From Pseudomonas aeruginosa (GTDB lineage Bacteria > Pseudomonadota > Gammaproteobacteria > Pseudomonadales > Pseudomonadaceae), in assembly GCF_001457615.1 (NCBI RefSeq), contig NZ_LN831024.1:3360001-3392000 (forward strand): a DNA stretch of 32,000 nt. Direction: 5' to 3'. The position numbers and the translations under genes were made by a program. Position 1 is the first letter of the stretch. Every line of letters begins with the position of its first letter. The notes below the pieces were generated by a model. It saw only the letters and a program-made list of their open reading frames with translations. It searched no databases and was not told the DNA's origin. Positions 8,567 through 32,000 of the stretch are shown in pieces.

Positions 8567-9090
8567 AGGTGCTGGTACTCACCGGGCCCGAATCCAGCGG
8601 CAAGAGCTGGCTTGCGGAGCAGCTCCAGGCCCGCTTCGGCGGCCGGGTGGTCGGCGAGTACGTCCGCCACTTCATCGACGAACAGCGCCGCGACACCTGC
8701 TACGCCGACATCCCCGCCATCGCCCGCGGGCAACTGGCCTGGGAGGACGCCGCTCGCGCGGAACGGCCGGCGCTGCTGATCCTCGATACCCACCTGCTGA
8801 GCAACATCCTCTGGAGCCGGATTCTCTTCGGCGACTGTCCGGACTGGCTCGAACCCGCCCTGCTGCGGCGGCGCTACGACCTGCACCTGCTGCTCTCGCC
8901 GGAAGGCGTGGCCTGGAGCGCCGACGGCCAGCGCTGCCAGCCGGAACTGGCGCAGCGCCAGGCCTTCCACCGCGAATGCCAAGCCTGGCTGGAGCGGCAT
9001 CGGCAGCCCTACCGCGCCATCGCCGGCGACTGGGCCGAGCGCCGGCGCCAGGCTTTCGCCGCAGTGCAAGGACTGCTCCAGGACGGCTGA
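8563..9090 (+). CDS. NadR-type ribosylnicotinamide-kinase-like P-loop ATPase (stand-alone kinase domain)
   Basis: MKVLVLTGPESSGKSWLAEQL carries a Walker A motif. It is translationally coupled to pnuC. At 175 aa its size and context fit the C-terminal RNK domain of NadR. Confidence 0.75.
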   Translation: MKVLVLTGPESSGKSWLAEQLQARFGGRVVGEYVRHFIDEQRRDTCYADIPAIARGQLAWEDAARAERPALLILDTHLLSNILWSRILFGDCPDWLEPALLRRRYDLHLLLSPEGVAWSADGQRCQPELAQRQAFHRECQAWLERHRQPYRAIAGDWAERRRQAFAAVQGLLQDG

Positions 9091-12268: not shown

Positions 12269-12281
12269 TCGCAGGAGCCGG

Positions 12282-13034
12282 ATGCTCCGGGAGCACGCCA
12301 TGTACACGCACCACTGCTTCGTCCTCGCCTGCTGCCTCGGCGCTGCGCTGCCCGCCCCCGCCAGCGACCTGTTCGCCCCCGCCGAACTGAGCGACCAGGA
12401 GCTTTCCCATCTGCGCGGGCGCTATGTGCTGCCGGGGCGGATCGTCAGCTTCGGAGTGACCATGAGCAGCACCTGGCAGAACGCCAGCGGCCAGGTCCTC
12501 GGCGCGCGCGTCGACCTGCAGGTGCGGCAGAACCTGGCGCGCCCGGTCCTCAACGTCACCCTGGTCGATCGGCCAGGCGACGCCCCACCACCCGCCGCCG
12601 GCAACGGCCAGGTCCTCGGCGGCGCCGGACTGGCACAGACCCAAGGGGTCAGCCAGAGCATCCGCACCGCCGGCGACCACAACAGCGCCAGCAATGGCGT
12701 CAGCATCGAGGTCCGCCACGGCGACGCGCCGCCGCCACTGCCGGGCGGCACGCCGCTGGAAGGTGCGCTCGCCCTCAGCGGCGAGGCCGGCACGGTGAAG
12801 GTCACGCCGAACGGCGGCGCCCTGCAACTGGCGATCCAGGCCAGCGGCCAGGGCGCCAGCCTGCAAAGCCTCGGCGCCGGCGGCCTGGTGCAGAGCGTGG
12901 CGCTCAGCGGAAACCGCAACCTGGTGCAGAACCTGGCGGCGCTCGAGGTGATGCTCAAGGACCGGCCGGGCGCCGATCCGGCACTGAATTGCGCCTGGGA
13001 GCAATTGCGCGCGCTGCGCCCCAGCGGCTACTGA
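12282..13034 (+). CDS. fapE: FapE, minor fibre-associated component
   Basis: Position 5 in the fap cluster. The signal peptide is (MLREHA)MYTHHCFVLACCLGAALPAPA. An alternative ATG at 12300 has the better-spaced GGGAG RBS. Confidence 0.82.
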   Translation: MLREHAMYTHHCFVLACCLGAALPAPASDLFAPAELSDQELSHLRGRYVLPGRIVSFGVTMSSTWQNASGQVLGARVDLQVRQNLARPVLNVTLVDRPGDAPPPAAGNGQVLGGAGLAQTQGVSQSIRTAGDHNSASNGVSIEVRHGDAPPPLPGGTPLEGALALSGEAGTVKVTPNGGALQLAIQASGQGASLQSLGAGGLVQSVALSGNRNLVQNLAALEVMLKDRPGADPALNCAWEQLRALRPSGY

Positions 13035-25024: not shown

Positions 25025-25053
25025 TTGCCAATATGCCAACGCCTTGGCATAAC
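25025..25053 (+). promoter_or_regulatory. candidate promoter with embedded 20-bp palindromic operator upstream of the di-haem gene
   Basis: TTGCCA (25025..25030), a 17-nt spacer, then CATAAC (25048..25053). The spacer is covered by the perfect palindrome TATGCCAA-cgcc-TTGGCATA (25032..25051). Confidence 0.35.
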
Positions 25054-25086
25054 GGTGCCCAAAAAAGGCCTACAAGGACGTTCCTG

Positions 25087-26982
25087 ATGCGCACCGTGAA
25101 AAAGGCTCTGCTGGTTGTCGGCGTGATCGTGCTGGCGGTCGTCGGGGTGGTGGTCTACTACGTCGCCAATCCCAACCTGCCCCACTACCAGGCGCCGAGC
25201 GAGGTACGCTACCTGCCGCAATGGCAGGACGAGGCCCGCCAGCGCTTCTACTACACGCCCCAGGGCACCCTGGTGAAGGGCCTGCACTACGACTGGTTCA
25301 CCGCCCTCGAACTGCCCTTCTCCGAAGAACCCTTCGCCGCCCCCGAATACCTCGCCCGCTTCGGCTTCCTCGTCGATCCGCAGCAGAAGGCCAGCGACCT
25401 CAACCCCGGCAACCTGCCGGTGGGCTTCAGCCAGCACCGCGACGAGAAGACCGGCACCCGCTACCTGGACATCACCTGCGCCGCCTGCCACACCGGCGAA
25501 CTGCGCTACCAGGGCAAGTCGCTGCGCATCGACGGCGGCGCCGCCATGCACTCCATCGCCGCCACCGTGCCGACCCTGCGCGGCGGCGCCTTCGGCCAGG
25601 CGCTCGGCGCGAGCATGGCCGCCACCTACTACAACCCGTTCAAGTTCAACCGCTTCGCCAGGAAAGTCCTCGGCGAACGCTACGAACAGGACAAGTCGCA
25701 ACTGCGCGCCGACTTCAAGGCCGTACTCGACACCCTCCTGCGCACCGCCTGGAACGACACCCGCCGCCACCTCTACCCCACCGAGGAAGGCCCCGGCCGC
25801 ACCGACGCCTTCGGGCGCATCGCCAACAGCGTCTTCGGCGATGCCATCGACCCGGGCAACTACCGCGTCGCCAACGCCCCGGTGAGCTATCCGCAGGTCT
25901 GGGACATCTGGAAATTCGACTGGGTGCAATGGAACGGCTCGGCCATGCAGCCGATGGCGCGCAATATCGGCGAGGCCCTCGGCGTCGGCGCGCGCCTGCA
26001 GATCTTCGACGAGCACGGCCAGCCGCTGCAGGGCGAGCAGCGCTACGCCTCCAGCGTACGCCTGCACGACCTGCACGCCCTGGAAGAAACCCTGCAACAA
26101 CTGAAACCACCGACCTGGCCGGAAGACCTCTTCGGCCGCATCGACCTGCAACGCGCCTCCCAGGGCCGCGCCCTGTTCGAAGCCAACTGCGCCTTCTGCC
26201 ATGCGCCCAAGGTGCAACCGGCGGAATACGCCGCCCCCGGACGCAATCCCGAGTGGCGCATGCACATGGTGCCGACCGAGGTGATCGGCACCGATCCGAC
26301 CACCGCCGACAACATCGCCGACCACCGCTACGACCTGCGCAAGCTCGGCTGGAGCGTCGACGAACTGGCGCGGATGAACGTCCAACTGATCGGCGCCGAT
26401 CCGCAGCAACTCGACCTCTCGCAACTGTCCTCGGCCAAGGGCCTGGCCTACATCACCGCCTTCGTCGAGCAGCGCGCCTACCGGGACGCCGGCATCCCGC
26501 CGGAACAGCAGAAGACCATGAACGGCTTCGACCTGCCGATCGGCGTACAGGAACTGCGCGCCTACAAGGCCCGCCCGCTGGACGGCGTCTGGGCGACCCC
26601 GCCGTTCCTGCACAACGGCTCGGTGCCCAACCTGTTCCAACTGCTCTCCCCGGCCGCCGAACGCTCGCCGCAGTTCTACGTCGGCACCTTCGAATTCGAT
26701 CCGAAATTCGTTGGATTCCGCACCGAGAAATTCCCCGGCGGCTTCCTCCTCGACACCCGTCTCACCGGCAACCGCAACAGCGGCCACGAATTCCGCGACG
26801 GCTGCCGGCAGAACGGCGTGATCGGCCGCGCCCTCAGCCCGGAAGAACGCTGGGCGCTGGTGGAATACCTGAAGGTGCTCGGCAACCCCGAATTCGAGCG
26901 CCGCCTGGTCCCGGCCCAGACCCCACCCTGGCCGCCCGGCCCGAAATGCCCGGCGCCGGAGCAACGGACCGCGCAACGCTGA
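25087..26982 (+). CDS. membrane-anchored di-haem cytochrome c protein (CCP/MauG-superfamily-like, long form)
   Basis: The N-terminal signal-anchor is MRTVKKALLVVGVIVLAVVGVVVYYV. There are two CxxCH motifs: CAACH (25477..25491) and CAFCH (26188..26202), 237 aa apart. 631 aa. Confidence 0.85.
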   Translation: MRTVKKALLVVGVIVLAVVGVVVYYVANPNLPHYQAPSEVRYLPQWQDEARQRFYYTPQGTLVKGLHYDWFTALELPFSEEPFAAPEYLARFGFLVDPQQKASDLNPGNLPVGFSQHRDEKTGTRYLDITCAACHTGELRYQGKSLRIDGGAAMHSIAATVPTLRGGAFGQALGASMAATYYNPFKFNRFARKVLGERYEQDKSQLRADFKAVLDTLLRTAWNDTRRHLYPTEEGPGRTDAFGRIANSVFGDAIDPGNYRVANAPVSYPQVWDIWKFDWVQWNGSAMQPMARNIGEALGVGARLQIFDEHGQPLQGEQRYASSVRLHDLHALEETLQQLKPPTWPEDLFGRIDLQRASQGRALFEANCAFCHAPKVQPAEYAAPGRNPEWRMHMVPTEVIGTDPTTADNIADHRYDLRKLGWSVDELARMNVQLIGADPQQLDLSQLSSAKGLAYITAFVEQRAYRDAGIPPEQQKTMNGFDLPIGVQELRAYKARPLDGVWATPPFLHNGSVPNLFQLLSPAAERSPQFYVGTFEFDPKFVGFRTEKFPGGFLLDTRLTGNRNSGHEFRDGCRQNGVIGRALSPEERWALVEYLKVLGNPEFERRLVPAQTPPWPPGPKCPAPEQRTAQR

Positions 26983-27160
26983 ACCTGGGAAATGGAGAAG
27001 CGCGAGGCATGGCGCCGCCGCCCCTCTCCACCCCGAGCAGCCCCTCTCCCTTCAGGGGGGACGCCTGGCCAGAGGACGGGGAGAAGCAATCGTGGCGCAC
27101 TCCCCGCCCAAGAAGAATAAAAGCCCACAGCCAACGCACACCACCAAGGACACCCACTCC

Positions 27161-28300
27161 ATGCGCGCACTCCTCACCCACGCCTGGCTGTTCCTCGGCA
27201 AATGGCTCGGCCGCCTGCTCCTCCTGCTGCTGGCCGTCGGCCTCGGCGGCTGGGCCATCGGCAGCCTCTACTACGCCTGGAAATTCTCCGGCCCGGTGTC
27301 CGCGGAAGAGCAGATCGCCCCGGACGAAGCCCGCATCACCCAGGCGATCATCCAGGACGCCATCCGCGTGGTCGAACAGCACCGCGACAACACCCGCGTC
27401 CTGCGCGATGCCCACGCCAAGGCCCACGGCTGCGTGAAGGCCGAATTCAAGGTACGCGCCGACCTCGACCCAACCCTGCGTCGCGGCGTGTTCGCCGAAG
27501 CGGGCAAGAGCTGGAACGCCTGGGTGCGCTTCTCCAATGGCAACGCCTACCCGCAGTTCGACAGCAAGAACGACGCGCGCGGCATGGCCATCAAGCTGCT
27601 CGACGTGCCCGGCGAAAAACTCCTGCCCGGCCGCGGCCATGACGGCGAGCAGGACTTCGTCATGTTCAACCAGCCGGTGTTCTTCATCCGCGACATCGCC
27701 GAATACCGGCAGAACTTCGCCGCCCAGGCCGACGGCAAGAAAGCCCTGGCCTTCTTCCCCAACTGGAACCCCGCCAGTTGGGAACTGCGCCACCTGCTGA
27801 TCGCCCTGCGCACCCTCGCCCCCGCCCCGGACAGCCCGCTGCACGCCGGCTACAACGGCATCTCGCCGTACAAGCTGGGCGAACACAACATCAAGTTCCG
27901 CGTCGTCCCCGCCCCGGAGAAGTGCCCGGCCTACCAGCTACCGAAGCAGAACCAGGACCTGCCCAACTTCCTCCGCGCCGCCCTGTACCAGCAACTCTCC
28001 ATCGACCGCACCCCCGCCTGCTACGCCTTCCAGGTGCAGCGCCAGGACCCGGCCAAGTACATGCCCATCGAAGACACCAGCGTCGAATGGAAGGAGTCGG
28101 ACGCGCCCTTCGCTACCATAGCCGACATCATTGTGCCAGCTCAGGATTTCGATAGCCGGGAACAGAACCTGTTCTGTGACAACCTTTCGTTCAACCCCTG
28201 GCACGCGTTGCCGGAGCATCGGCCGATCGGCGGGATCAACCGGTTGCGGAAGGCGGTTTACGAGGCGGTCAGTGGGTATAGGTTGGGGAGGAATGGGTGA
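27161..28300 (+). CDS. membrane-anchored catalase-related haem protein (mini-catalase / catalase-like domain)
   Basis: The N-terminal TM is WLGRLLLLLLAVGLGGWAIGSLYY. The distal-His motif is RDAHAKAHG (His codon 27413..27415). ARGMAIKL is also present. The proximal ligand motif R-K-A-V-Y (Tyr codon 28259..28261) has the same R-x3-Y spacing as catalases. 379 aa. Confidence 0.85.
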   Translation: MRALLTHAWLFLGKWLGRLLLLLLAVGLGGWAIGSLYYAWKFSGPVSAEEQIAPDEARITQAIIQDAIRVVEQHRDNTRVLRDAHAKAHGCVKAEFKVRADLDPTLRRGVFAEAGKSWNAWVRFSNGNAYPQFDSKNDARGMAIKLLDVPGEKLLPGRGHDGEQDFVMFNQPVFFIRDIAEYRQNFAAQADGKKALAFFPNWNPASWELRHLLIALRTLAPAPDSPLHAGYNGISPYKLGEHNIKFRVVPAPEKCPAYQLPKQNQDLPNFLRAALYQQLSIDRTPACYAFQVQRQDPAKYMPIEDTSVEWKESDAPFATIADIIVPAQDFDSREQNLFCDNLSFNPWHALPEHRPIGGINRLRKAVYEAVSGYRLGRNG

Positions 28301-28412
28301 GGGATTGGGTGGAAGGTAGCTGCGTATGGAGGCTCTTATTGGTATGGATTTCGCCAATCTGGACTGGCAGAAAACGGCCAGAAGCGGTCTCTCACCTATT
28401 CACCCAGCAGCT

Positions 28413-28433
28413 AAAAAACCGCAGGTTTGCGGT
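28413..28433 (-). terminator. orphan minus-strand rho-independent terminator in the junction region
   Basis: The minus strand reads ACCGCA-aacc-TGCGGT followed by TTTTT. No convincing minus-strand gene lies upstream of it. Confidence 0.4.
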
Positions 28434-28744
28434 ACTCGCATGTCCACCTCAACGTCTGCGCCAACCTCCAATTGCTTTGCTGTCTGACAGTCGCCATTCA
28501 GATTTCTGCCATTCTGTCTACGATATCAATGGCTTTTTCTTGCCCACTGCTAGCGATCCGGACTAATTTCGGAATGTTCCAAAACGACCAAACAGGGAAA
28601 GGACGCAATGACAGTAGCCTCCCCCCAGTTCTGACTCCAAAAAAACAGGTCTAACGGATCGACACTGGAGATTATGCGACACACCATCGCAATGGAGATT
28701 GTAATATACCGTATCAATGACAATTTAGGTTATGGGCGAGACTT

Positions 28745-29521
28745 ATGCCAAGTTTTGTTTGGGACAGAGACACAGAGGAAGCGTGGAGTGAACCCTATGA
28801 GTATGGTGGGCAGGAGCAGTTCCACCGAGAGGCTTATAAGGTTCTATCGCTAATAAAACTTCACTATGCAGAAAAAGATATGCACTTTGACCGAGATGAA
28901 AAAACTCTCGACAAAGCAATCTGGCTAATACAGATAGATGCTTTAGAAGCGCTAATTGATGCCTTGAAATTAACAGAGGAGAAGAGACACCGAATTGCCT
29001 CGCGCTTATTTCGTGATGCGGTCGAGACAATGGATATTTCGGCCTACTTTTATTTGGCTGGTGATGAAGCAAGGAAAGATCTCGCCAAATGGTACAATAA
29101 CGAAGTGATTCCACATAAGGTTTTTAGAGAATTTATAAAAAAGTATGAATGCCAAGATAAAGCTAAAAATTTAAGCAACCTTTATAGCGATCTCAGCAAG
29201 TATACACATCGGACATATAGCGCGATAACCAAAAGCTACCTGCTCGGCAGGAATAACAAAATTGCCTATGATGGATTTTCTGAGGCCGGCTTCAGGGTGC
29301 TTCCACACGTTATATCCCTTTCGTATGCAATAATCGCAGCATTGATAAAAAGATTTGTCACGATTGCCGAAAACAGCCAGCAAATTGATTCAGCCAAAAT
29401 TTGCGATATTTGGGCGGCATCATTGGAGCGAGAGACAGTACCGAGACGCTTTGGCCCAAGGCCAGGTCAGGTGCTCAGAAGTGCTCCTATAGCGTTTGAC
29501 CTGAGGTTGGATGAAGATTAA
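28745..29521 (+). CDS. hypothetical 258-aa protein, predicted all-helical, no recognised family
   Basis: It is the longest ORF in a very A/T-rich stretch where random ORFs are improbable. Composition is Lys/Glu/Ile/Tyr-rich. It has no TM or signal peptide. The RBS is weak. Confidence 0.7.
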   Translation: MPSFVWDRDTEEAWSEPYEYGGQEQFHREAYKVLSLIKLHYAEKDMHFDRDEKTLDKAIWLIQIDALEALIDALKLTEEKRHRIASRLFRDAVETMDISAYFYLAGDEARKDLAKWYNNEVIPHKVFREFIKKYECQDKAKNLSNLYSDLSKYTHRTYSAITKSYLLGRNNKIAYDGFSEAGFRVLPHVISLSYAIIAALIKRFVTIAENSQQIDSAKICDIWAASLERETVPRRFGPRPGQVLRSAPIAFDLRLDED

Positions 29522-29532
29522 TTGAGTTGTCG

Positions 29533-29763
29533 CTACTTTTGCTGATGGATTGAGTGTCTGCTTTTGTCCGGTTGTTGCCTGTCACAATCGGTGGTTTGGG
29601 TCGATCTCAGCCTGTCATGACGGTTAGAGTTCGAACCGGAGCTGCCCTTCGCATAGGGTAGGCATCCTGCGAGACCGATCAGACAGCACAGTATCACTAC
29701 GCAATCACAAATGTTCCATTTATCTTTGAGTTGGGTCTGCTCACGCCAAGGATTTTGCCGCAT
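29533..29763 (-). CDS. possible small lipoprotein antisense between the two island genes (speculative)
   Basis: ORF-track frame 29533..29787. From Met-9 it reads MRQNPWREQTQLKDKWNICDCVVILCCLIGLAGC, with a perfect lipobox L-A-G-C (Cys codon 29662..29664). The n-region is atypically long, and the start would abut the start of the AAA_13 gene. Confidence 0.2.
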   Translation of the reverse strand: MRQNPWREQTQLKDKWNICDCVVILCCLIGLAGCLPYAKGSSGSNSNRHDRLRSTQTTDCDRQQPDKSRHSIHQQK

Positions 29764-31915
29764 GATCGAAAAAATTCTGCTTCGCAACGTCTCCAGCTAC
29801 TCTCCAGACTCAGCGGTATCCATTGCCCCGCTTAAGCGCGTGAGTTTGTTCTATGGCCATAACGGGACGGGCAAGACCACTATCAGTAACTTCCTTCAGG
29901 CCCCTGATGAGGCCTGCTACAGCGTTTGCGGCGTGGAGCCAGTAAAGGTTGGCCGGGAGATCCTAGTCTACAACCATGCATTCATGGAGAAAAATTTCCA
30001 TGAAGCCGCATCCCAGCCAGGGGTCTTCACCCTCAATGAGGGCAACATTGAGGCGGAAGCTGCCCTCGCAGTGGCCGAGAAAGCAATCGCTGAGCTGACG
30101 ATCGCCCATGATACTGAAATGGAGAAGGGCATTAACTGCAAGAATGCTCAGCAGCAAGCTCATGAGGCGCTACTGGACAGTGTATGGAAGCCTAAGCGTG
30201 GCTTCGATAACACCGCTTTGGCTTACTGCTTCAGGTCGCTCAACACCAAAGAGCGTTTACTTGATGCAGTCCGAAGCGTCCAGCTTGTGGCAACCTCTGA
30301 CACCGCTCAGGGGCTACTCAGCGAGGCGGCAGAACTTAACGAGGCCAGTGATAAAGAGCTGCCCGGAATCGCGCCAATCACCTTCCAGGCGGGTAAGCTA
30401 GAAACCGATCCGATCATGCAGGAAGTCATCACTGGGTCAGGCGATTCCTACCTTTCTGCGTTCATTCAGCAACTGGGAAATTCGGATTGGGTCAAGCAGG
30501 CACTGCGCTATGAGGTCGAGGCAAAAGACCAGTGCCCACTATGCCAGCAGTCCTTGCCGCAGGATTTCTATACTGAAATTCGTAAAGTCTTCGATAAAAC
30601 CTATCAGCAGCGCATTGATTTGCTGCAGCAATTCGAAAGCCAATACCGAGACGCGGTGGATCAATTTCTGCGACGGTACGAGGCTCCGGAATATCAGCTG
30701 CAAGCCATAAAGCTCCGTGTCACCAGACTTCACGCTGTCTTCCAGAAAAACCTGCAATCCCTCGCTACAAAGCTCGCCAGTCCATCCCTTACGATTACGT
30801 TGGAGTCCACTGCAACATTGGTCGCAGAGTTGAACAGTGAGATCGCGGCTGAGCAACTGAAAATCGACGCTATCAATGCGAGGATAAAAAACAGGAAGCA
30901 GCATGAGGAGGACATCAAGCGACGCTTCTGGAGCTGGTACAGAGCTTCGTGCGACGCGGCTTTCGTGGCATTCGAAAAGGTCGATAAGGAGCAGGGGCGC
31001 CAACGCCAGGCCGCCAAGGATGAGGTTCAGTCTCTGCGGGATCGCATTCAGGCACAACGCGATATCATTGCCCAATCCAGGGCGGCCATCAGGAACATCG
31101 ACCAGTCGGTCGAGAGTATCAATAATTGGTTGCGGGTGTTGGGTCTGAAGGGCTTCGCGCTGATTAAAGAAGAGGGCCCGGTGCCACAATATCGTCTTGA
31201 ACGTCCTGGCCAGACTGAAGGGGTGTTCAGAACGCTAAGTGAGGGCGAAAAAACGCTGATCTCGTTCCTCTACTTCCTTGAGGTCTGCAATGGCGAGCTG
31301 GACACAGCTAGTGGGACGCTCAAGCGTGATCGCATCATCGTCATCGATGACCCAATATCGAGCCTCTCCCATAACTATGTCTACGATATTGCGTCGCTGA
31401 TCAGGCGGCAGGTGCTCATCCCGAGAGACCGGTTCAAACAGGTGATCATTCTGACGCACAACCTTTTCTTCTTCCACGAAATGGTCAAGCTCTTGAAGGA
31501 TGACGGAGAAAGATCCTTGGCAATGTTCCGGATCACCAAGTCCGAATACAGCTCGGTCGTGACCATGGAAGAGCGCGAAATCCAGAACGACTACCAAGCC
31601 TTCTGGCAAACCATCAAGGACGCGTTGCAAGGCCGAACTTCCCCTAACGTGATCCCGAACATGATGCGCAATATCTTGGAGTACTACTTCAGCTTCGTGC
31701 ATCAGACGCAAAGCCTGCGCCAGGCGTTGACTGATCTTAGCGAGGAGAATCCAGAGTTCAGAGCGCTTTACCGATACATCAACCGTGAATCACATGCTGA
31801 CTCGGTTAACCTAACTGACTTCGGCGAGATCGATCCGGAGATCTTCGTCGCGCGGTTTAAGGATGTGTTCATCAGAACCAATTTCGAATCTCACTTCGAC
31901 AAGATGATGGCATAG
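29762..31915 (+). CDS. AAA_13-type ABC-like ATPase with long helical insert and C-terminal RloC/PrrC-like putative anticodon-nuclease domain
   Basis: The start MIEKILLRNVSSY is the typical family N-terminus. The ATPase motifs are Walker A GHNGTGKTT (29855..29881), CPLC (30533..30544), signature LSEGEK (31235..31252), Walker B IIVIDDP (31334..31354) and LTHN. The C-terminus has RNILE (Arg 31667, Glu 31679) and NRESH (His 31793). Confidence 0.9.
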   Translation: MIEKILLRNVSSYSPDSAVSIAPLKRVSLFYGHNGTGKTTISNFLQAPDEACYSVCGVEPVKVGREILVYNHAFMEKNFHEAASQPGVFTLNEGNIEAEAALAVAEKAIAELTIAHDTEMEKGINCKNAQQQAHEALLDSVWKPKRGFDNTALAYCFRSLNTKERLLDAVRSVQLVATSDTAQGLLSEAAELNEASDKELPGIAPITFQAGKLETDPIMQEVITGSGDSYLSAFIQQLGNSDWVKQALRYEVEAKDQCPLCQQSLPQDFYTEIRKVFDKTYQQRIDLLQQFESQYRDAVDQFLRRYEAPEYQLQAIKLRVTRLHAVFQKNLQSLATKLASPSLTITLESTATLVAELNSEIAAEQLKIDAINARIKNRKQHEEDIKRRFWSWYRASCDAAFVAFEKVDKEQGRQRQAAKDEVQSLRDRIQAQRDIIAQSRAAIRNIDQSVESINNWLRVLGLKGFALIKEEGPVPQYRLERPGQTEGVFRTLSEGEKTLISFLYFLEVCNGELDTASGTLKRDRIIVIDDPISSLSHNYVYDIASLIRRQVLIPRDRFKQVIILTHNLFFFHEMVKLLKDDGERSLAMFRITKSEYSSVVTMEEREIQNDYQAFWQTIKDALQGRTSPNVIPNMMRNILEYYFSFVHQTQSLRQALTDLSEENPEFRALYRYINRESHADSVNLTDFGEIDPEIFVARFKDVFIRTNFESHFDKMMA

Positions 31916-32000
31916 CTAGCCATGTATTCTGGGATGGCTGCGTCAAGGCGTATGTGTTCGCTCCTTCTACCGGGAACGACCGGATAACCTGGAATTGCAC

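Follow-up and report, generated by a model that had tools for sequence, protein, structure and literature searches.

RloC is a described family of anticodon nucleases, defined by the motifs of an ABC ATPase, a coiled-coil insert carrying CXXC, and an Arg-X3-Glu-X36-52-His triad, the His of which often follows a Ser (PMC2610378). In the Geobacillus kaustophilus protein (GkaRloC), mutations of the triad abolish activity and toxicity, and mutations of the zinc hook activate the enzyme (PMC2610378). The ATPase of RloC is DNA-dependent and serves as a switch (PMC3458546). The only native RloC whose activation was demonstrated is that of Acinetobacter baylyi, which is activated by nalidixic acid, an inducer of double-strand breaks, and cleaves tRNA-Glu and tRNA-Gln (PMC3874168). 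The role of RloC in phage defense is still a proposal. No phage protection by any RloC was demonstrated in the studies consulted (PMC3874168, PMC12447246, PMC12322248), and in P. syringae the carriage of RloC was correlated with phage susceptibility (PMC12447246). The family has also been tabulated in P. aeruginosa: entry 63 of Table S1 of the 2008 RloC paper is a protein of 717 aa from strain PA14 (YP_791302), with a flank given as "Hypothetical" and "-" in the Hsd column (PMC2610378).

Architecture and family assignment of the gene

The window, a stretch of 32,000 nucleotides of P. aeruginosa DNA, carries near its right end a gene (Table 1) that, judging from its sequence and its modeled fold, very probably encodes an RloC-family anticodon nuclease. 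A start at the in-frame ATG at 29711 would lengthen the N-terminus by 17 residues. We place the start at 29762 because the homologs have 712-727 aa and their M1 is nearly invariant.

Table 1. Features of the rloC region, in coordinates of the window.
Feature	Position	Strand	Basis or remark
Low-GC islet, GC 0.50 vs 0.67	28301..32000	.	inserted after catalase-like core gene
258-aa orphan ORF, identical to UniRef A0A0H2Z902_PSEAB	28745..29521	+	same low-GC islet
rloC-family gene, 717 aa	29762..31915	+	ORF with stop; AAA_13; PADLOC PDC-S06 and PrrC models
Walker A / P-loop GHNGTGKT, residues 32-39	29855..29878	+	G32, N34, G35, G37, K38 invariant
Helical coiled-coil insert splitting the ATPase head, ~residues 94-460	30041..31141	+	AF2 model
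CPLC, candidate zinc hook, residues 258-261	30533..30544	+	C258, P259, C261, Q262 invariant
ABC signature LSEGE, residues 492-496	31235..31249	+	motif reading, homolog alignment
Walker B IIVIDD, residues 525-530, then D-loop	31334..31351	+	motif reading, homolog alignment
H-loop ILTH, residues 563-566, linchpin His566	31448..31459	+	motif reading, homolog alignment
All-helical C-domain, ~residues 604-717, PrrC/RloC-type anticodon nuclease (predicted)	31571..31912	+	PADLOC PrrC model through residue 683
R636-N-I-L-E640, triad Arg and Glu	31667..31681	+	invariant in homologs
R671-YINRES-H678, triad His with Ser before	31772..31795	+	NRESH = residues 674-678; invariant residues

Profile searches agree with this assignment. 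The first-pass annotation had predicted matches to AAA_13 and to the defense catalogs, and both were found. Pfam AAA_13 (PF13166) matches the full length of the protein (1.3e-113, profile positions 8-712 of 713), and PADLOC assigns it to PDC-S06, a single-gene phage defense candidate, with 885.6 bits (model PDLC04886; 9.3e-267, residues 1-716 against profile positions 1-722 of 727). The protein also hits the PADLOC PrrC model in two stretches (2.3e-18), the best of which aligns residues 492-683 with profile positions 142-319 of 372 and includes the triad. The protein thus has the homology to PrrC in both ATPase and nuclease regions that is expected of an RloC.

The motifs of the published definition are all present: those of the ABC ATPase, the CXXC insert, and R-X3-E-X37-(S)H. 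The ATPase is indeed split, as had been read from the letters, and the large gap between Walker A and the signature stands, at about 455 aa instead of the 470 first given, a trivial difference. The helical insert with its CPLC is likewise borne out by the AF2 model (pLDDT 80), in which long helices (94-146 and 398-459) enclose a helical middle part. The N-terminal part of the protein is nearest in fold to Rad50, SMC, and LmuB, in keeping with an RloC. Around CPLC the model has short helices and a small hairpin, not a simple long antiparallel coiled coil, and the match to Pfam Rad50_zn_hook falls short of the threshold (E = 0.031). The predicted C-domain has helices at 611-622, 628-645, 649-662, 664-673, and 692-705. 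It contains the Arg-Glu pair and, 38 residues after the Glu, the His that the first-pass annotation had singled out. The spacing from R671 to H678 is also compatible with the HEPN motif Rx4-6H, and the nuclease domain of PrrC and RloC has been placed in the HEPN class (PMC3710099). A Foldseek search of the PDB with the isolated C-domain model returned nothing significant (best E = 0.7), and phmmer and profile searches of PDB sequences detected no relative, the matches being confined to P-loops or the Rad50 N-terminus, with E >= 0.015.

Conservation was assessed in a sample of 31 homologs with 50-94% identity. Walker A, CPLC, LSEGE, Walker B, the H-loop, and R636-x3-E640-x37-S677-H678 are invariant in all 31, as are, residue by residue, C258, P259, C261, R636, N637, I638, L639, E640, R671, N674, R675, E676, S677, and H678. 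The RloC motifs are therefore more than chance resemblances, since their residues do not vary among 31 homologs down to 50% identity. More distant comparators came from a tblastn search of plasmids, which returned only genes annotated "AAA family ATPase". The candidates that we inspected were all RloC-like (737-818 aa, one locus being a split gene) and none was a PrrC. The CxxC, RxxxE, and SH motifs align in such proteins, whose identity is about 25-40% and which stem from plasmids and distant phyla: R-x3-E in 9/9, and SH in all but the Pusillibacter sequence, whose alignment is uncertain at this point.

The gene is thus known in kind, belongs to a described family, and by itself adds little. 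From the equal length and the locus, we take it to be the PA14 gene of YP_791302. One database already calls the exact sequence a "wobble nucleotide-excising tRNase". DefenseFinder includes an RloC category. PADLOC routinely finds two PDC-S06 genes in PA14 (PMC11878078), and screening any P. aeruginosa genome that has this gene with PADLOC brings it up as PDC-S06. The proposal of a defense candidate holds in that the gene is of the RloC type, but not as a novelty, since the PA14 ortholog was tabulated in 2008 and PDC-S06 has been reported by PADLOC.

Alternative readings of the protein

The protein might instead be a DNA-sensing defense ATPase of the Rad50/SMC kind, whose C-terminal RNase attacks mRNA or rRNA, or which triggers another effector, as the LmuB and PtuA ATPases do. 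The best PDB fold matches of the full-length model (Rad50, SMC, Lamassu LmuB, and retron PtuA) fit this possibility, as do weak PADLOC matches to the LmuB and AriA models and the diversity of the substrates of HEPN RNases (PMC3710099). Yet, the triad and its spacing match those of two proven tRNA anticodon nucleases, and no separate effector gene is conserved near the homologs. We consider this reading unlikely.

Even less probable is a PrrC-type anticodon nuclease, silenced by and dependent on a type I restriction-modification (R-M) enzyme encoded elsewhere. The match to the PADLOC PrrC model would be expected of such a protein, and the authors of the RloC studies left room for an R-M protein acting in trans as regulator (PMC3874168, PMC3458546). 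However, PrrC proteins have about 400 aa, with an uninterrupted ABC N-domain, and are invariably linked to type Ic hsd genes, whereas this protein has 717 aa and a coiled-coil/CXXC insert of about 365 aa that PrrC lacks. The first-pass annotation saw no hsd genes nearby, and this extends well beyond the window: in eight P. aeruginosa assemblies that encode the identical protein, the 10 kb to each side of the gene contained no hsd, mod, res, or other R-M Pfam families. The locus is, like those of most RloCs, unlinked to R-M genes. The residue after Walker A is a Thr (the sequence reads GTGKTT-I), in place of the Arg that, with the PrrC box, is a hallmark of PrrC and of its GTP/dTTP specificity (PMC3458546). 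Furthermore, deletions of hsdR, hsdM, and hsdS left the regulation of RloC unaffected in A. baylyi (PMC3874168). We rejected identity as PrrC because the coiled-coil/zinc-hook insert is present and hsd genes are absent within 10 kb, and the earlier preference for RloC over PrrC agrees with the published definition.

Finally, the least credible reading is that the gene is decaying or silent, a passenger that now has no function in P. aeruginosa: RloC genes are predicted to be lowly expressed (PMC2610378), no promoter-like site was found directly upstream, and truncated copies (260-583 aa, many of them from partial assemblies) occur in its 90% cluster, but the frame is intact and the protein identical in at least eight P. 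aeruginosa assemblies and at least 53 contigs, and the catalytic residues are invariant across species.

The islet and the small downstream gene

The gene lies in a low-GC islet, in agreement with the first-pass annotation: GC is 0.50 over 28301-32000 and 0.67 over 1-28300 of the window. GC3 is 0.66 in rloC, 0.42 in the ORF upstream, and 0.89 in the flanking core genes. From identical P. aeruginosa loci, the islet measures about 4.2 kb and ends about 460 nt past the window. PADLOC counts indicate that it is missing from PAO1 (PMC11878078). A 29-nt inverted repeat brackets the islet (8600-8628 and 12609-12637 of locus L001). Its left arm is not kept in other species, and it may be a chance match. 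A scan for promoters and terminators at the rloC locus found nothing above the shuffled expectation.

The gene had been described as sitting alone. This is correct for R-M genes, but the islet also contains the 258-aa ORF upstream, and a conserved small gene lies downstream. The product of the upstream ORF is identical to a PA14 protein and has no match in Pfam, PADLOC, NCBIfam, or PHROGs. It was rejected as a partner of RloC: it adjoins rloC only in P. aeruginosa loci (0/80 homolog loci), belongs to no matched family, and differs in GC (0.43 vs 0.53 for rloC). Among the six neighboring ORFs of at least 80 aa at the RloC homolog loci, we found no conserved protein partner, with the exception of an FRG-domain PDC-S15 protein directly 3' of RloC in eight Pseudomonas loci; this protein is a candidate system in its own right.

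The small downstream gene is the only novel lead at this locus. Beyond the window, about 240 nt downstream of the rloC stop, is a structured mRNA of about 245 nt that carries no annotation and encodes a basic protein of 34 aa belonging to phrog_21154 (PHROG 21154). In locus L001 the small gene is at 12396-12497. Across loci this protein has 30-36 aa, is basic, and follows the consensus M..KVVxVRQYxRFRFGxWExVCxHxRSLPRR. The small gene adjoins 38/80 RloC homologs. It also flanks PARIS, an AbiL-like PDC-M12 pair, an Stk2-like kinase with DUF3800, and pairs of XRE and M78 peptidase, and occurs alone in phage genomes.

What could this gene be? A generic MITE or known RNA was rejected: an Rfam search of the downstream conserved element matched no family, and at the DNA level the element has no match in phage records and a single, partial match in plasmids, beside an RloC-like gene. 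A place in the P2 backbone was likewise rejected, as all 24 P2-like carriers also have RloC and no RloC-less carrier locus is P2-like. A partnership specific to RloC is weakened because other defense modules are flanked as well. One tentative possibility, on which we would not insist, is that in this subfamily an RloC cassette comprises more than one gene and travels with the small gene, which might be a regulator or antidote shared by abortive-infection effectors that target translation, and might for example bind the toxin or the tRNA on which the toxin acts; the copies in phages might then serve in counter-defense. In the literature, rloC is a "single cargo" that suffices by itself and is switched internally, whereas about half of the sampled homologs carry the small gene and a conserved RNA structure. 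Should the small gene act as a modulator of these toxins, the regulation of defense or counter-defense would gain a new participant of very small size.

Probable mode of action and comparison with known systems

By analogy with the RloCs of G. kaustophilus and A. baylyi, we infer that the protein would dimerize through its ATPase heads. At rest, the zinc hooks would join within the dimer and the nuclease would be kept silent. DNA ends, whether produced by double-strand breaks or by phage-induced degradation of DNA, would on binding turn on ATP hydrolysis and free the nuclease, which would cut the anticodon loop first on the 3' side of the wobble base and next on its 5' side. The wobble nucleotide would thus be excised from the tRNA and translation would stop. 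None of these steps should require a linked R-M silencer, and rloC may be mobile as cargo of the small strain-variable islet. There are many phages available for PA14, which has good genetics, and none was known for A. baylyi. PA14 would be a better host than A. baylyi for probing phage protection by RloC and its trigger in vivo.

The closest known system is GkaRloC (Davidov & Kaufmann 2008; Klaiman et al. 2012), which shares the split ABC ATPase, the helical insert with CXXC, the R-x3-E...S-H triad, and the character of single-gene mobile cargo, and is listed with the PA14 ortholog in one published RloC table. It is longer (804 vs 717 aa), and Hsd genes are present in the genome it comes from, with a cryptic fragment of an R subunit next to rloC; the P. 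aeruginosa gene has no R-M genes within 10 kb. The A. baylyi ADP1 RloC (ACIAD0152) is alike in being chromosomal, gammaproteobacterial, and not linked to hsd. EcoPrrC also joins an ABC ATPase N-domain to an anticodon nuclease at the C-terminus, and its triad is R320/E324/H356. In contrast to RloC, PrrC has about 400 aa and lacks the coiled coil and zinc hook; its gene always lies inside type Ic hsd loci, GTP/dTTP and T4 Stp activate it, and it nicks its substrate without excision.

Beyond the anticodon nucleases, Rad50 and SbcC share the head, the coiled coil, and the CxxC hook, and are the best structural matches. The P. aeruginosa protein differs from them by its far shorter insert, by the added C-terminal RNase domain, and by a neighborhood without an Mre11/SbcD gene. 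Lamassu, with LmuB, and PARIS, with the ABC ATPase AriA and the Toprim tRNA nuclease AriB, resemble RloC in that an ATPase of the ABC/SMC type restrains a nuclease until infection, and PARIS also cuts tRNA. In both, however, the nuclease has a different fold and is a separate polypeptide.

Reading frame, family and earlier record of the gene

Among 5.8 billion proteins searched, we found 611 relatives of the 717-aa product of rloC, most of them from Pseudomonas, most 712-727 aa long, and every one (611/611) carrying 'AAA family ATPase' as its sole name. An in-frame ATG at position 29711, upstream of the start used here (table), would lengthen the protein by 17 residues; given the length of the homologues and their nearly invariant Met1, we take 29762 as the real start. 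A motif scan located every element of the split ATPase, the CPLC insert and the C-terminal R-N-I-L-E and NRESH motifs described in the first-pass annotation, and the spacing of 38 residues that it had counted from Glu to His was recovered exactly (Glu640 to His678). In an alignment of 31 homologues with 50-94% identity, all ATPase motifs are invariant, as are C258, P259 and C261, R636-N-I-L-E640, R671 and N674-R-E-S-H678. We widened the comparison to more remote RloC-like proteins (725-818 aa; tblastn identity about 25-40%), whose sources were an E. coli IncX1 plasmid, a P. aeruginosa megaplasmid, Pusillibacter, Fibrobacter, Ureibacillus, Vibrio, Endozoicomonas and a Nitrospinaceae MAG. Each of the nine distant sequences has CxxC and R-x3-E in register with ours, and Ser-His aligns as well except in Pusillibacter, where the alignment is uncertain.

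Both family comparisons suggested in the first-pass annotation returned matches. Pfam AAA_13 (PF13166) covers residues 17-703 over profile positions 8-712 of 713 (1.3e-113). In PADLOC the best-scoring family is PDC-S06, a 'phage defence candidate' made up of one gene (885.6 bits, full length), and the PADLOC PrrC model also matches (2.3e-18), its best stretch being residues 492-683, that is, the ATPase C-lobe and the triad-bearing part of the C-domain. Standard defence-finder tools already flag the gene. We found neither a specific NCBIfam model nor a sequence-related solved structure for the protein. In an AlphaFold2 model computed from the 31-sequence alignment (pLDDT 80), the head is beta-rich, residues 94-146 and 398-459 form long helices, the middle part is helical and makes a small hairpin at CPLC, and the C-terminal domain is entirely helical; searched against the PDB with Foldseek, the model retrieved Rad50 first (E = 2.7e-7), then SMC heads, Lamassu LmuB and retron PtuA.

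RloC was defined as a distant homologue of PrrC with ABC motifs in common, a coiled-coil insert with a CXXC zinc hook at its centre, and a C-proximal Arg-X3-Glu-X36-52-His in which Ser often precedes the His (Davidov and Kaufmann, PMC2610378). In our protein X is 37 between Glu and His and a Ser precedes the His, so that every sequence feature of RloC is present. Judged by its sequence, the gene is an RloC-family anticodon nuclease, not PrrC, and the earlier preference for RloC over PrrC is borne out, insert included. The gene is not novel, since its PA14 orthologue has been recorded as RloC since 2008: Supplementary Table 1 of the defining study lists two orthologues in P. aeruginosa UCBPP-PA14, of which YP_791302 has 717 aa, the flank 'Hypothetical' and '-' in the Hsd column (PMC2610378). 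The exact sequence is on record for P. aeruginosa at NCBI, JGI and ENA, under the name 'wobble nucleotide-excising tRNase' in one source, and, according to a 2025 paper, PADLOC detects PDC-S06 twice in PA14 and not in PAO1 (PMC11878078). On this record it is a catalogued member of a known family.

Coordinates of the features discussed (L numbers, compared loci; L001, P. aeruginosa locus)
Feature	Position	Strand	Remark
RoxA-like di-haem cytochrome c (649 aa) and catalase-related protein (402 aa)	window 25033-28300	+	core genes upstream of islet
258-aa orphan ORF	window 28745-29521	+	GC 0.43, same islet as rloC
rloC ORF	window 29762-31915	+	717 codons plus stop
Walker A GHNGTGKT	residues 32-39		motif scan of 717-aa protein
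CPLC	residues 258-261		motif scan of 717-aa protein
ABC signature LSEGE	residues 492-496		motif scan of 717-aa protein
Walker B IIVIDD	residues 525-530		motif scan of 717-aa protein
H-loop ILTH	residues 563-566		motif scan of 717-aa protein
RNILE	residues 636-640		motif scan of 717-aa protein
NRESH	residues 674-678		motif scan of 717-aa protein
Structured element	L001:12284-12528 (window equivalent 32045-32289)	+	roughly 245 nt, beyond window end
Small ORF	L001:12396-12497	+	within structured element
Inverted repeat, left arm	L001:8600-8628 (window 28361-28389)
Inverted repeat, right arm	L001:12609-12637 (window ~32370-32398)		outside window
PDC-S15 gene, example	L023:10270-11568	same as rloC	Pseudomonas
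Replaced operon	L002:13625-18662		P. aeruginosa GCA_013328625.1
RloC/small-ORF pair in P2-like prophage	L104:2542-8850		IMG/VR

The islet and its neighbours

The low-GC islet noted in the first-pass annotation is real: GC is 0.50 over 28301-32000 against 0.67 in the remaining window, and GC3 is 0.66 in rloC against 0.89 in the adjacent catalase-like and RoxA-like cytochrome c genes, whose very high value marks a sharp left edge. In loci with DNA identical to window 28301-32000, the islet begins just past the catalase-like gene (about 28300) and ends about 460 nt outside the window. In eight P. aeruginosa assemblies encoding the identical 717-aa protein, the upstream genes are rbsB-like, sigma-54 activator, RimK-like, GNAT, RoxA-like cytochrome c and catalase-like, and the downstream ones DUF4354, a xanthine-dehydrogenase-type operon, a PAS sensor and metE; none within 10 kb on either side encodes restriction-modification functions. 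The description of the gene as sitting alone thus holds for such functions, but not for the islet, which it shares with a 258-aa ORF and a conserved small gene.

The 258-aa ORF is identical to PA14 protein A0A0H2Z902, is found on at least 1000 contigs, and has zero matches in Pfam, PADLOC, NCBIfam and PHROGs. Because it lacks a family match and is missing from 80/80 loci of RloC homologues in other species, it is a neighbour, and its candidacy as a partner is ruled out. When neighbouring ORFs of at least 80 aa, three per side, were clustered for 80 homologues, no conserved protein partner emerged, with one exception, a 432-aa FRG-domain protein (PADLOC PDC-S15, 313 bits) directly 3' of rloC in eight Pseudomonas loci that are without the small ORF and whose RloC homologues have ~55% identity. 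It is a candidate second defence gene recurring beside this RloC subclade.

The xanthine-dehydrogenase-type operon 3' of the islet gives way, in one P. aeruginosa lineage (L002), to five other genes: three whose products (125, 700 and 353 aa) match no family, a MerR fragment, and one for a trypsin-like protein of 260 aa that weakly matches LmuA. This shows the site to be variable. The two GC-transition edges of the islet carry the arms of a 29-nt inverted repeat (79% complementary); conservation in two other species (L009, L013) extends to the right arm and not to the left, and the repeat may be a chance match. The islet that carries rloC is strain-variable.

A small gene and a structured RNA beside rloC

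One lead seems worth following, a conserved small gene and RNA that are companions of this and many other RloC genes. Searching with the DNA 3' of the rloC stop by blastn, we found a ~260-nt segment (L001 ~12270-12530, window equivalent 32031-32291) that is 85-96% identical in 17 other loci, seven of them with an RloC just ~57-58% identical, and ~70% identical in several additional ones. The segment always lies at most 500 nt from one end of an RloC gene, nearly always the 3' end, and carries a Shine-Dalgarno sequence and a 34-codon ORF for a basic protein: MTDHGKVVLVRQYNRFRFGQWETVCMHMRSLPRR. By tblastn and HMM, the small ORF (30-36 aa) adjoins 38 of 80 RloC homologues taken at species level, with RloC identity as low as 30%, and no copies away from rloC occur in these 80 genome loci. 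It is co-directional, 150-460 nt 3' of rloC, in Pseudomonas and relatives; convergent, 36-116 nt off the RloC stop, in Aliivibrio, Pseudoalteromonas, Idiomarina, Photobacterium, Enterobacter, Pantoea, Pectobacterium, Xenorhabdus and Endozoicomonas; and divergent, upstream of rloC, in Halopseudomonas.

The small ORF is protein-coding. Among 60 distinct protein versions from 73 distinct coding sequences, differences at codon positions 1/2/3 number 17544/13326/37308, and pN/pS is 0.32 in frame versus at least 1.1 in both other frames. It matches PHROG 21154, a function-unassigned family (1e-6 to 1e-10), has no match in Pfam, NCBIfam, PADLOC or PDB, is absent from the annotation of the P. aeruginosa assemblies and plasmid records inspected, and we found no mention of it in the literature. 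The Pseudomonas-type element around it is a conserved RNA structure, in which a 12-bp stem joins the ends of the element and the 5' leader forms two hairpins. Across 20 diverse sequences 99.2% of cells are paired and eight pairs show compensatory double changes; none of 500 shuffles attains the observed pairing values, and slid controls pair at most 56% of cells. Every one-sided change leaves a G-U pair on the ORF-sense strand, which favours an RNA stem over DNA terminal repeats.

RloC is the commonest neighbour of the small ORF in the sampled loci. Of the 60 IMG/VR loci with the small ORF, 33 have a RloC homologue immediately next to it. P2-like prophages of Enterobacterales account for 24 of these (L104 and 23 similar loci), and in them the pair is cargo between replication gene A and portal gene Q. 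The RloC family is represented by a PHROG of its own (phrog_2801). P2-like prophages are missing among the 27 loci that lack RloC, which rules out the small ORF as P2 backbone and makes it cargo. A relative is encoded on at least 501 metagenomic stretches; of the best 80, RloC is adjacent in 47, absent in 6 although each flank reaches 2.5 kb or more, and possible in the 27 with at least one flank below 2.5 kb. The small ORF has other neighbours, too: where RloC is missing, it adjoins PARIS AriA/AriB (L184), XRE-HTH and Peptidase_M78 pairs (L100, L121, L220, probably L228), an AbiL-like PDC-M12A/B pair on 4-kb ColE1-type E. coli plasmids, a PD-T4-6/Stk2-like kinase with a DUF3800/PDC-M04A gene on Acinetobacter plasmids, and lysis or structural genes in phages of other kinds; in phages it is also seen by itself. 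In our reading it is a real, unannotated gene with a structured mRNA, associated with defence cargo; it may regulate these systems, counteract them when phage-borne, or be a hitch-hiker.

Comparison with characterized anticodon nucleases

In Geobacillus kaustophilus RloC (GkaRloC), Ala at any triad residue abolishes tRNA cleavage and toxicity, and zinc-hook mutants have a hyperactive nuclease independent of ATP and DNA (PMC2610378, PMC3458546). The on-switch of the wild-type nuclease is a DNA-dependent ATPase that prefers DNA ends, and the enzyme removes the wobble nucleotide by two cuts, first 3' and then 5' of its base (PMC3458546). Native Acinetobacter baylyi RloC is activated by nalidixic acid, an inducer of double-strand breaks, does not need hsd genes, and targets tRNA-Glu and tRNA-Gln (PMC3874168). 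By homology, P. aeruginosa RloC would most likely be switched on by a DNA-dependent ATPase, as GkaRloC is, and its nuclease would most likely excise the wobble nucleotide from tRNA. [quoted passage not shown] In the literature we found no demonstration of a direct anti-phage effect of RloC: it is listed as 'not tested' in a study of S. thermophilus (PMC12322248), and its carriage correlated with phage susceptibility in P. syringae (PMC12447246).

PrrC proteins, in contrast, have about 400 aa and no insert, are encoded invariably inside a type Ic hsd locus, and have an Arg at the end of Walker A (PMC3874168, PMC3458546), whereas our protein has the insert, its gene lacks restriction-modification neighbours, and its Walker A ends in GKTT-I.
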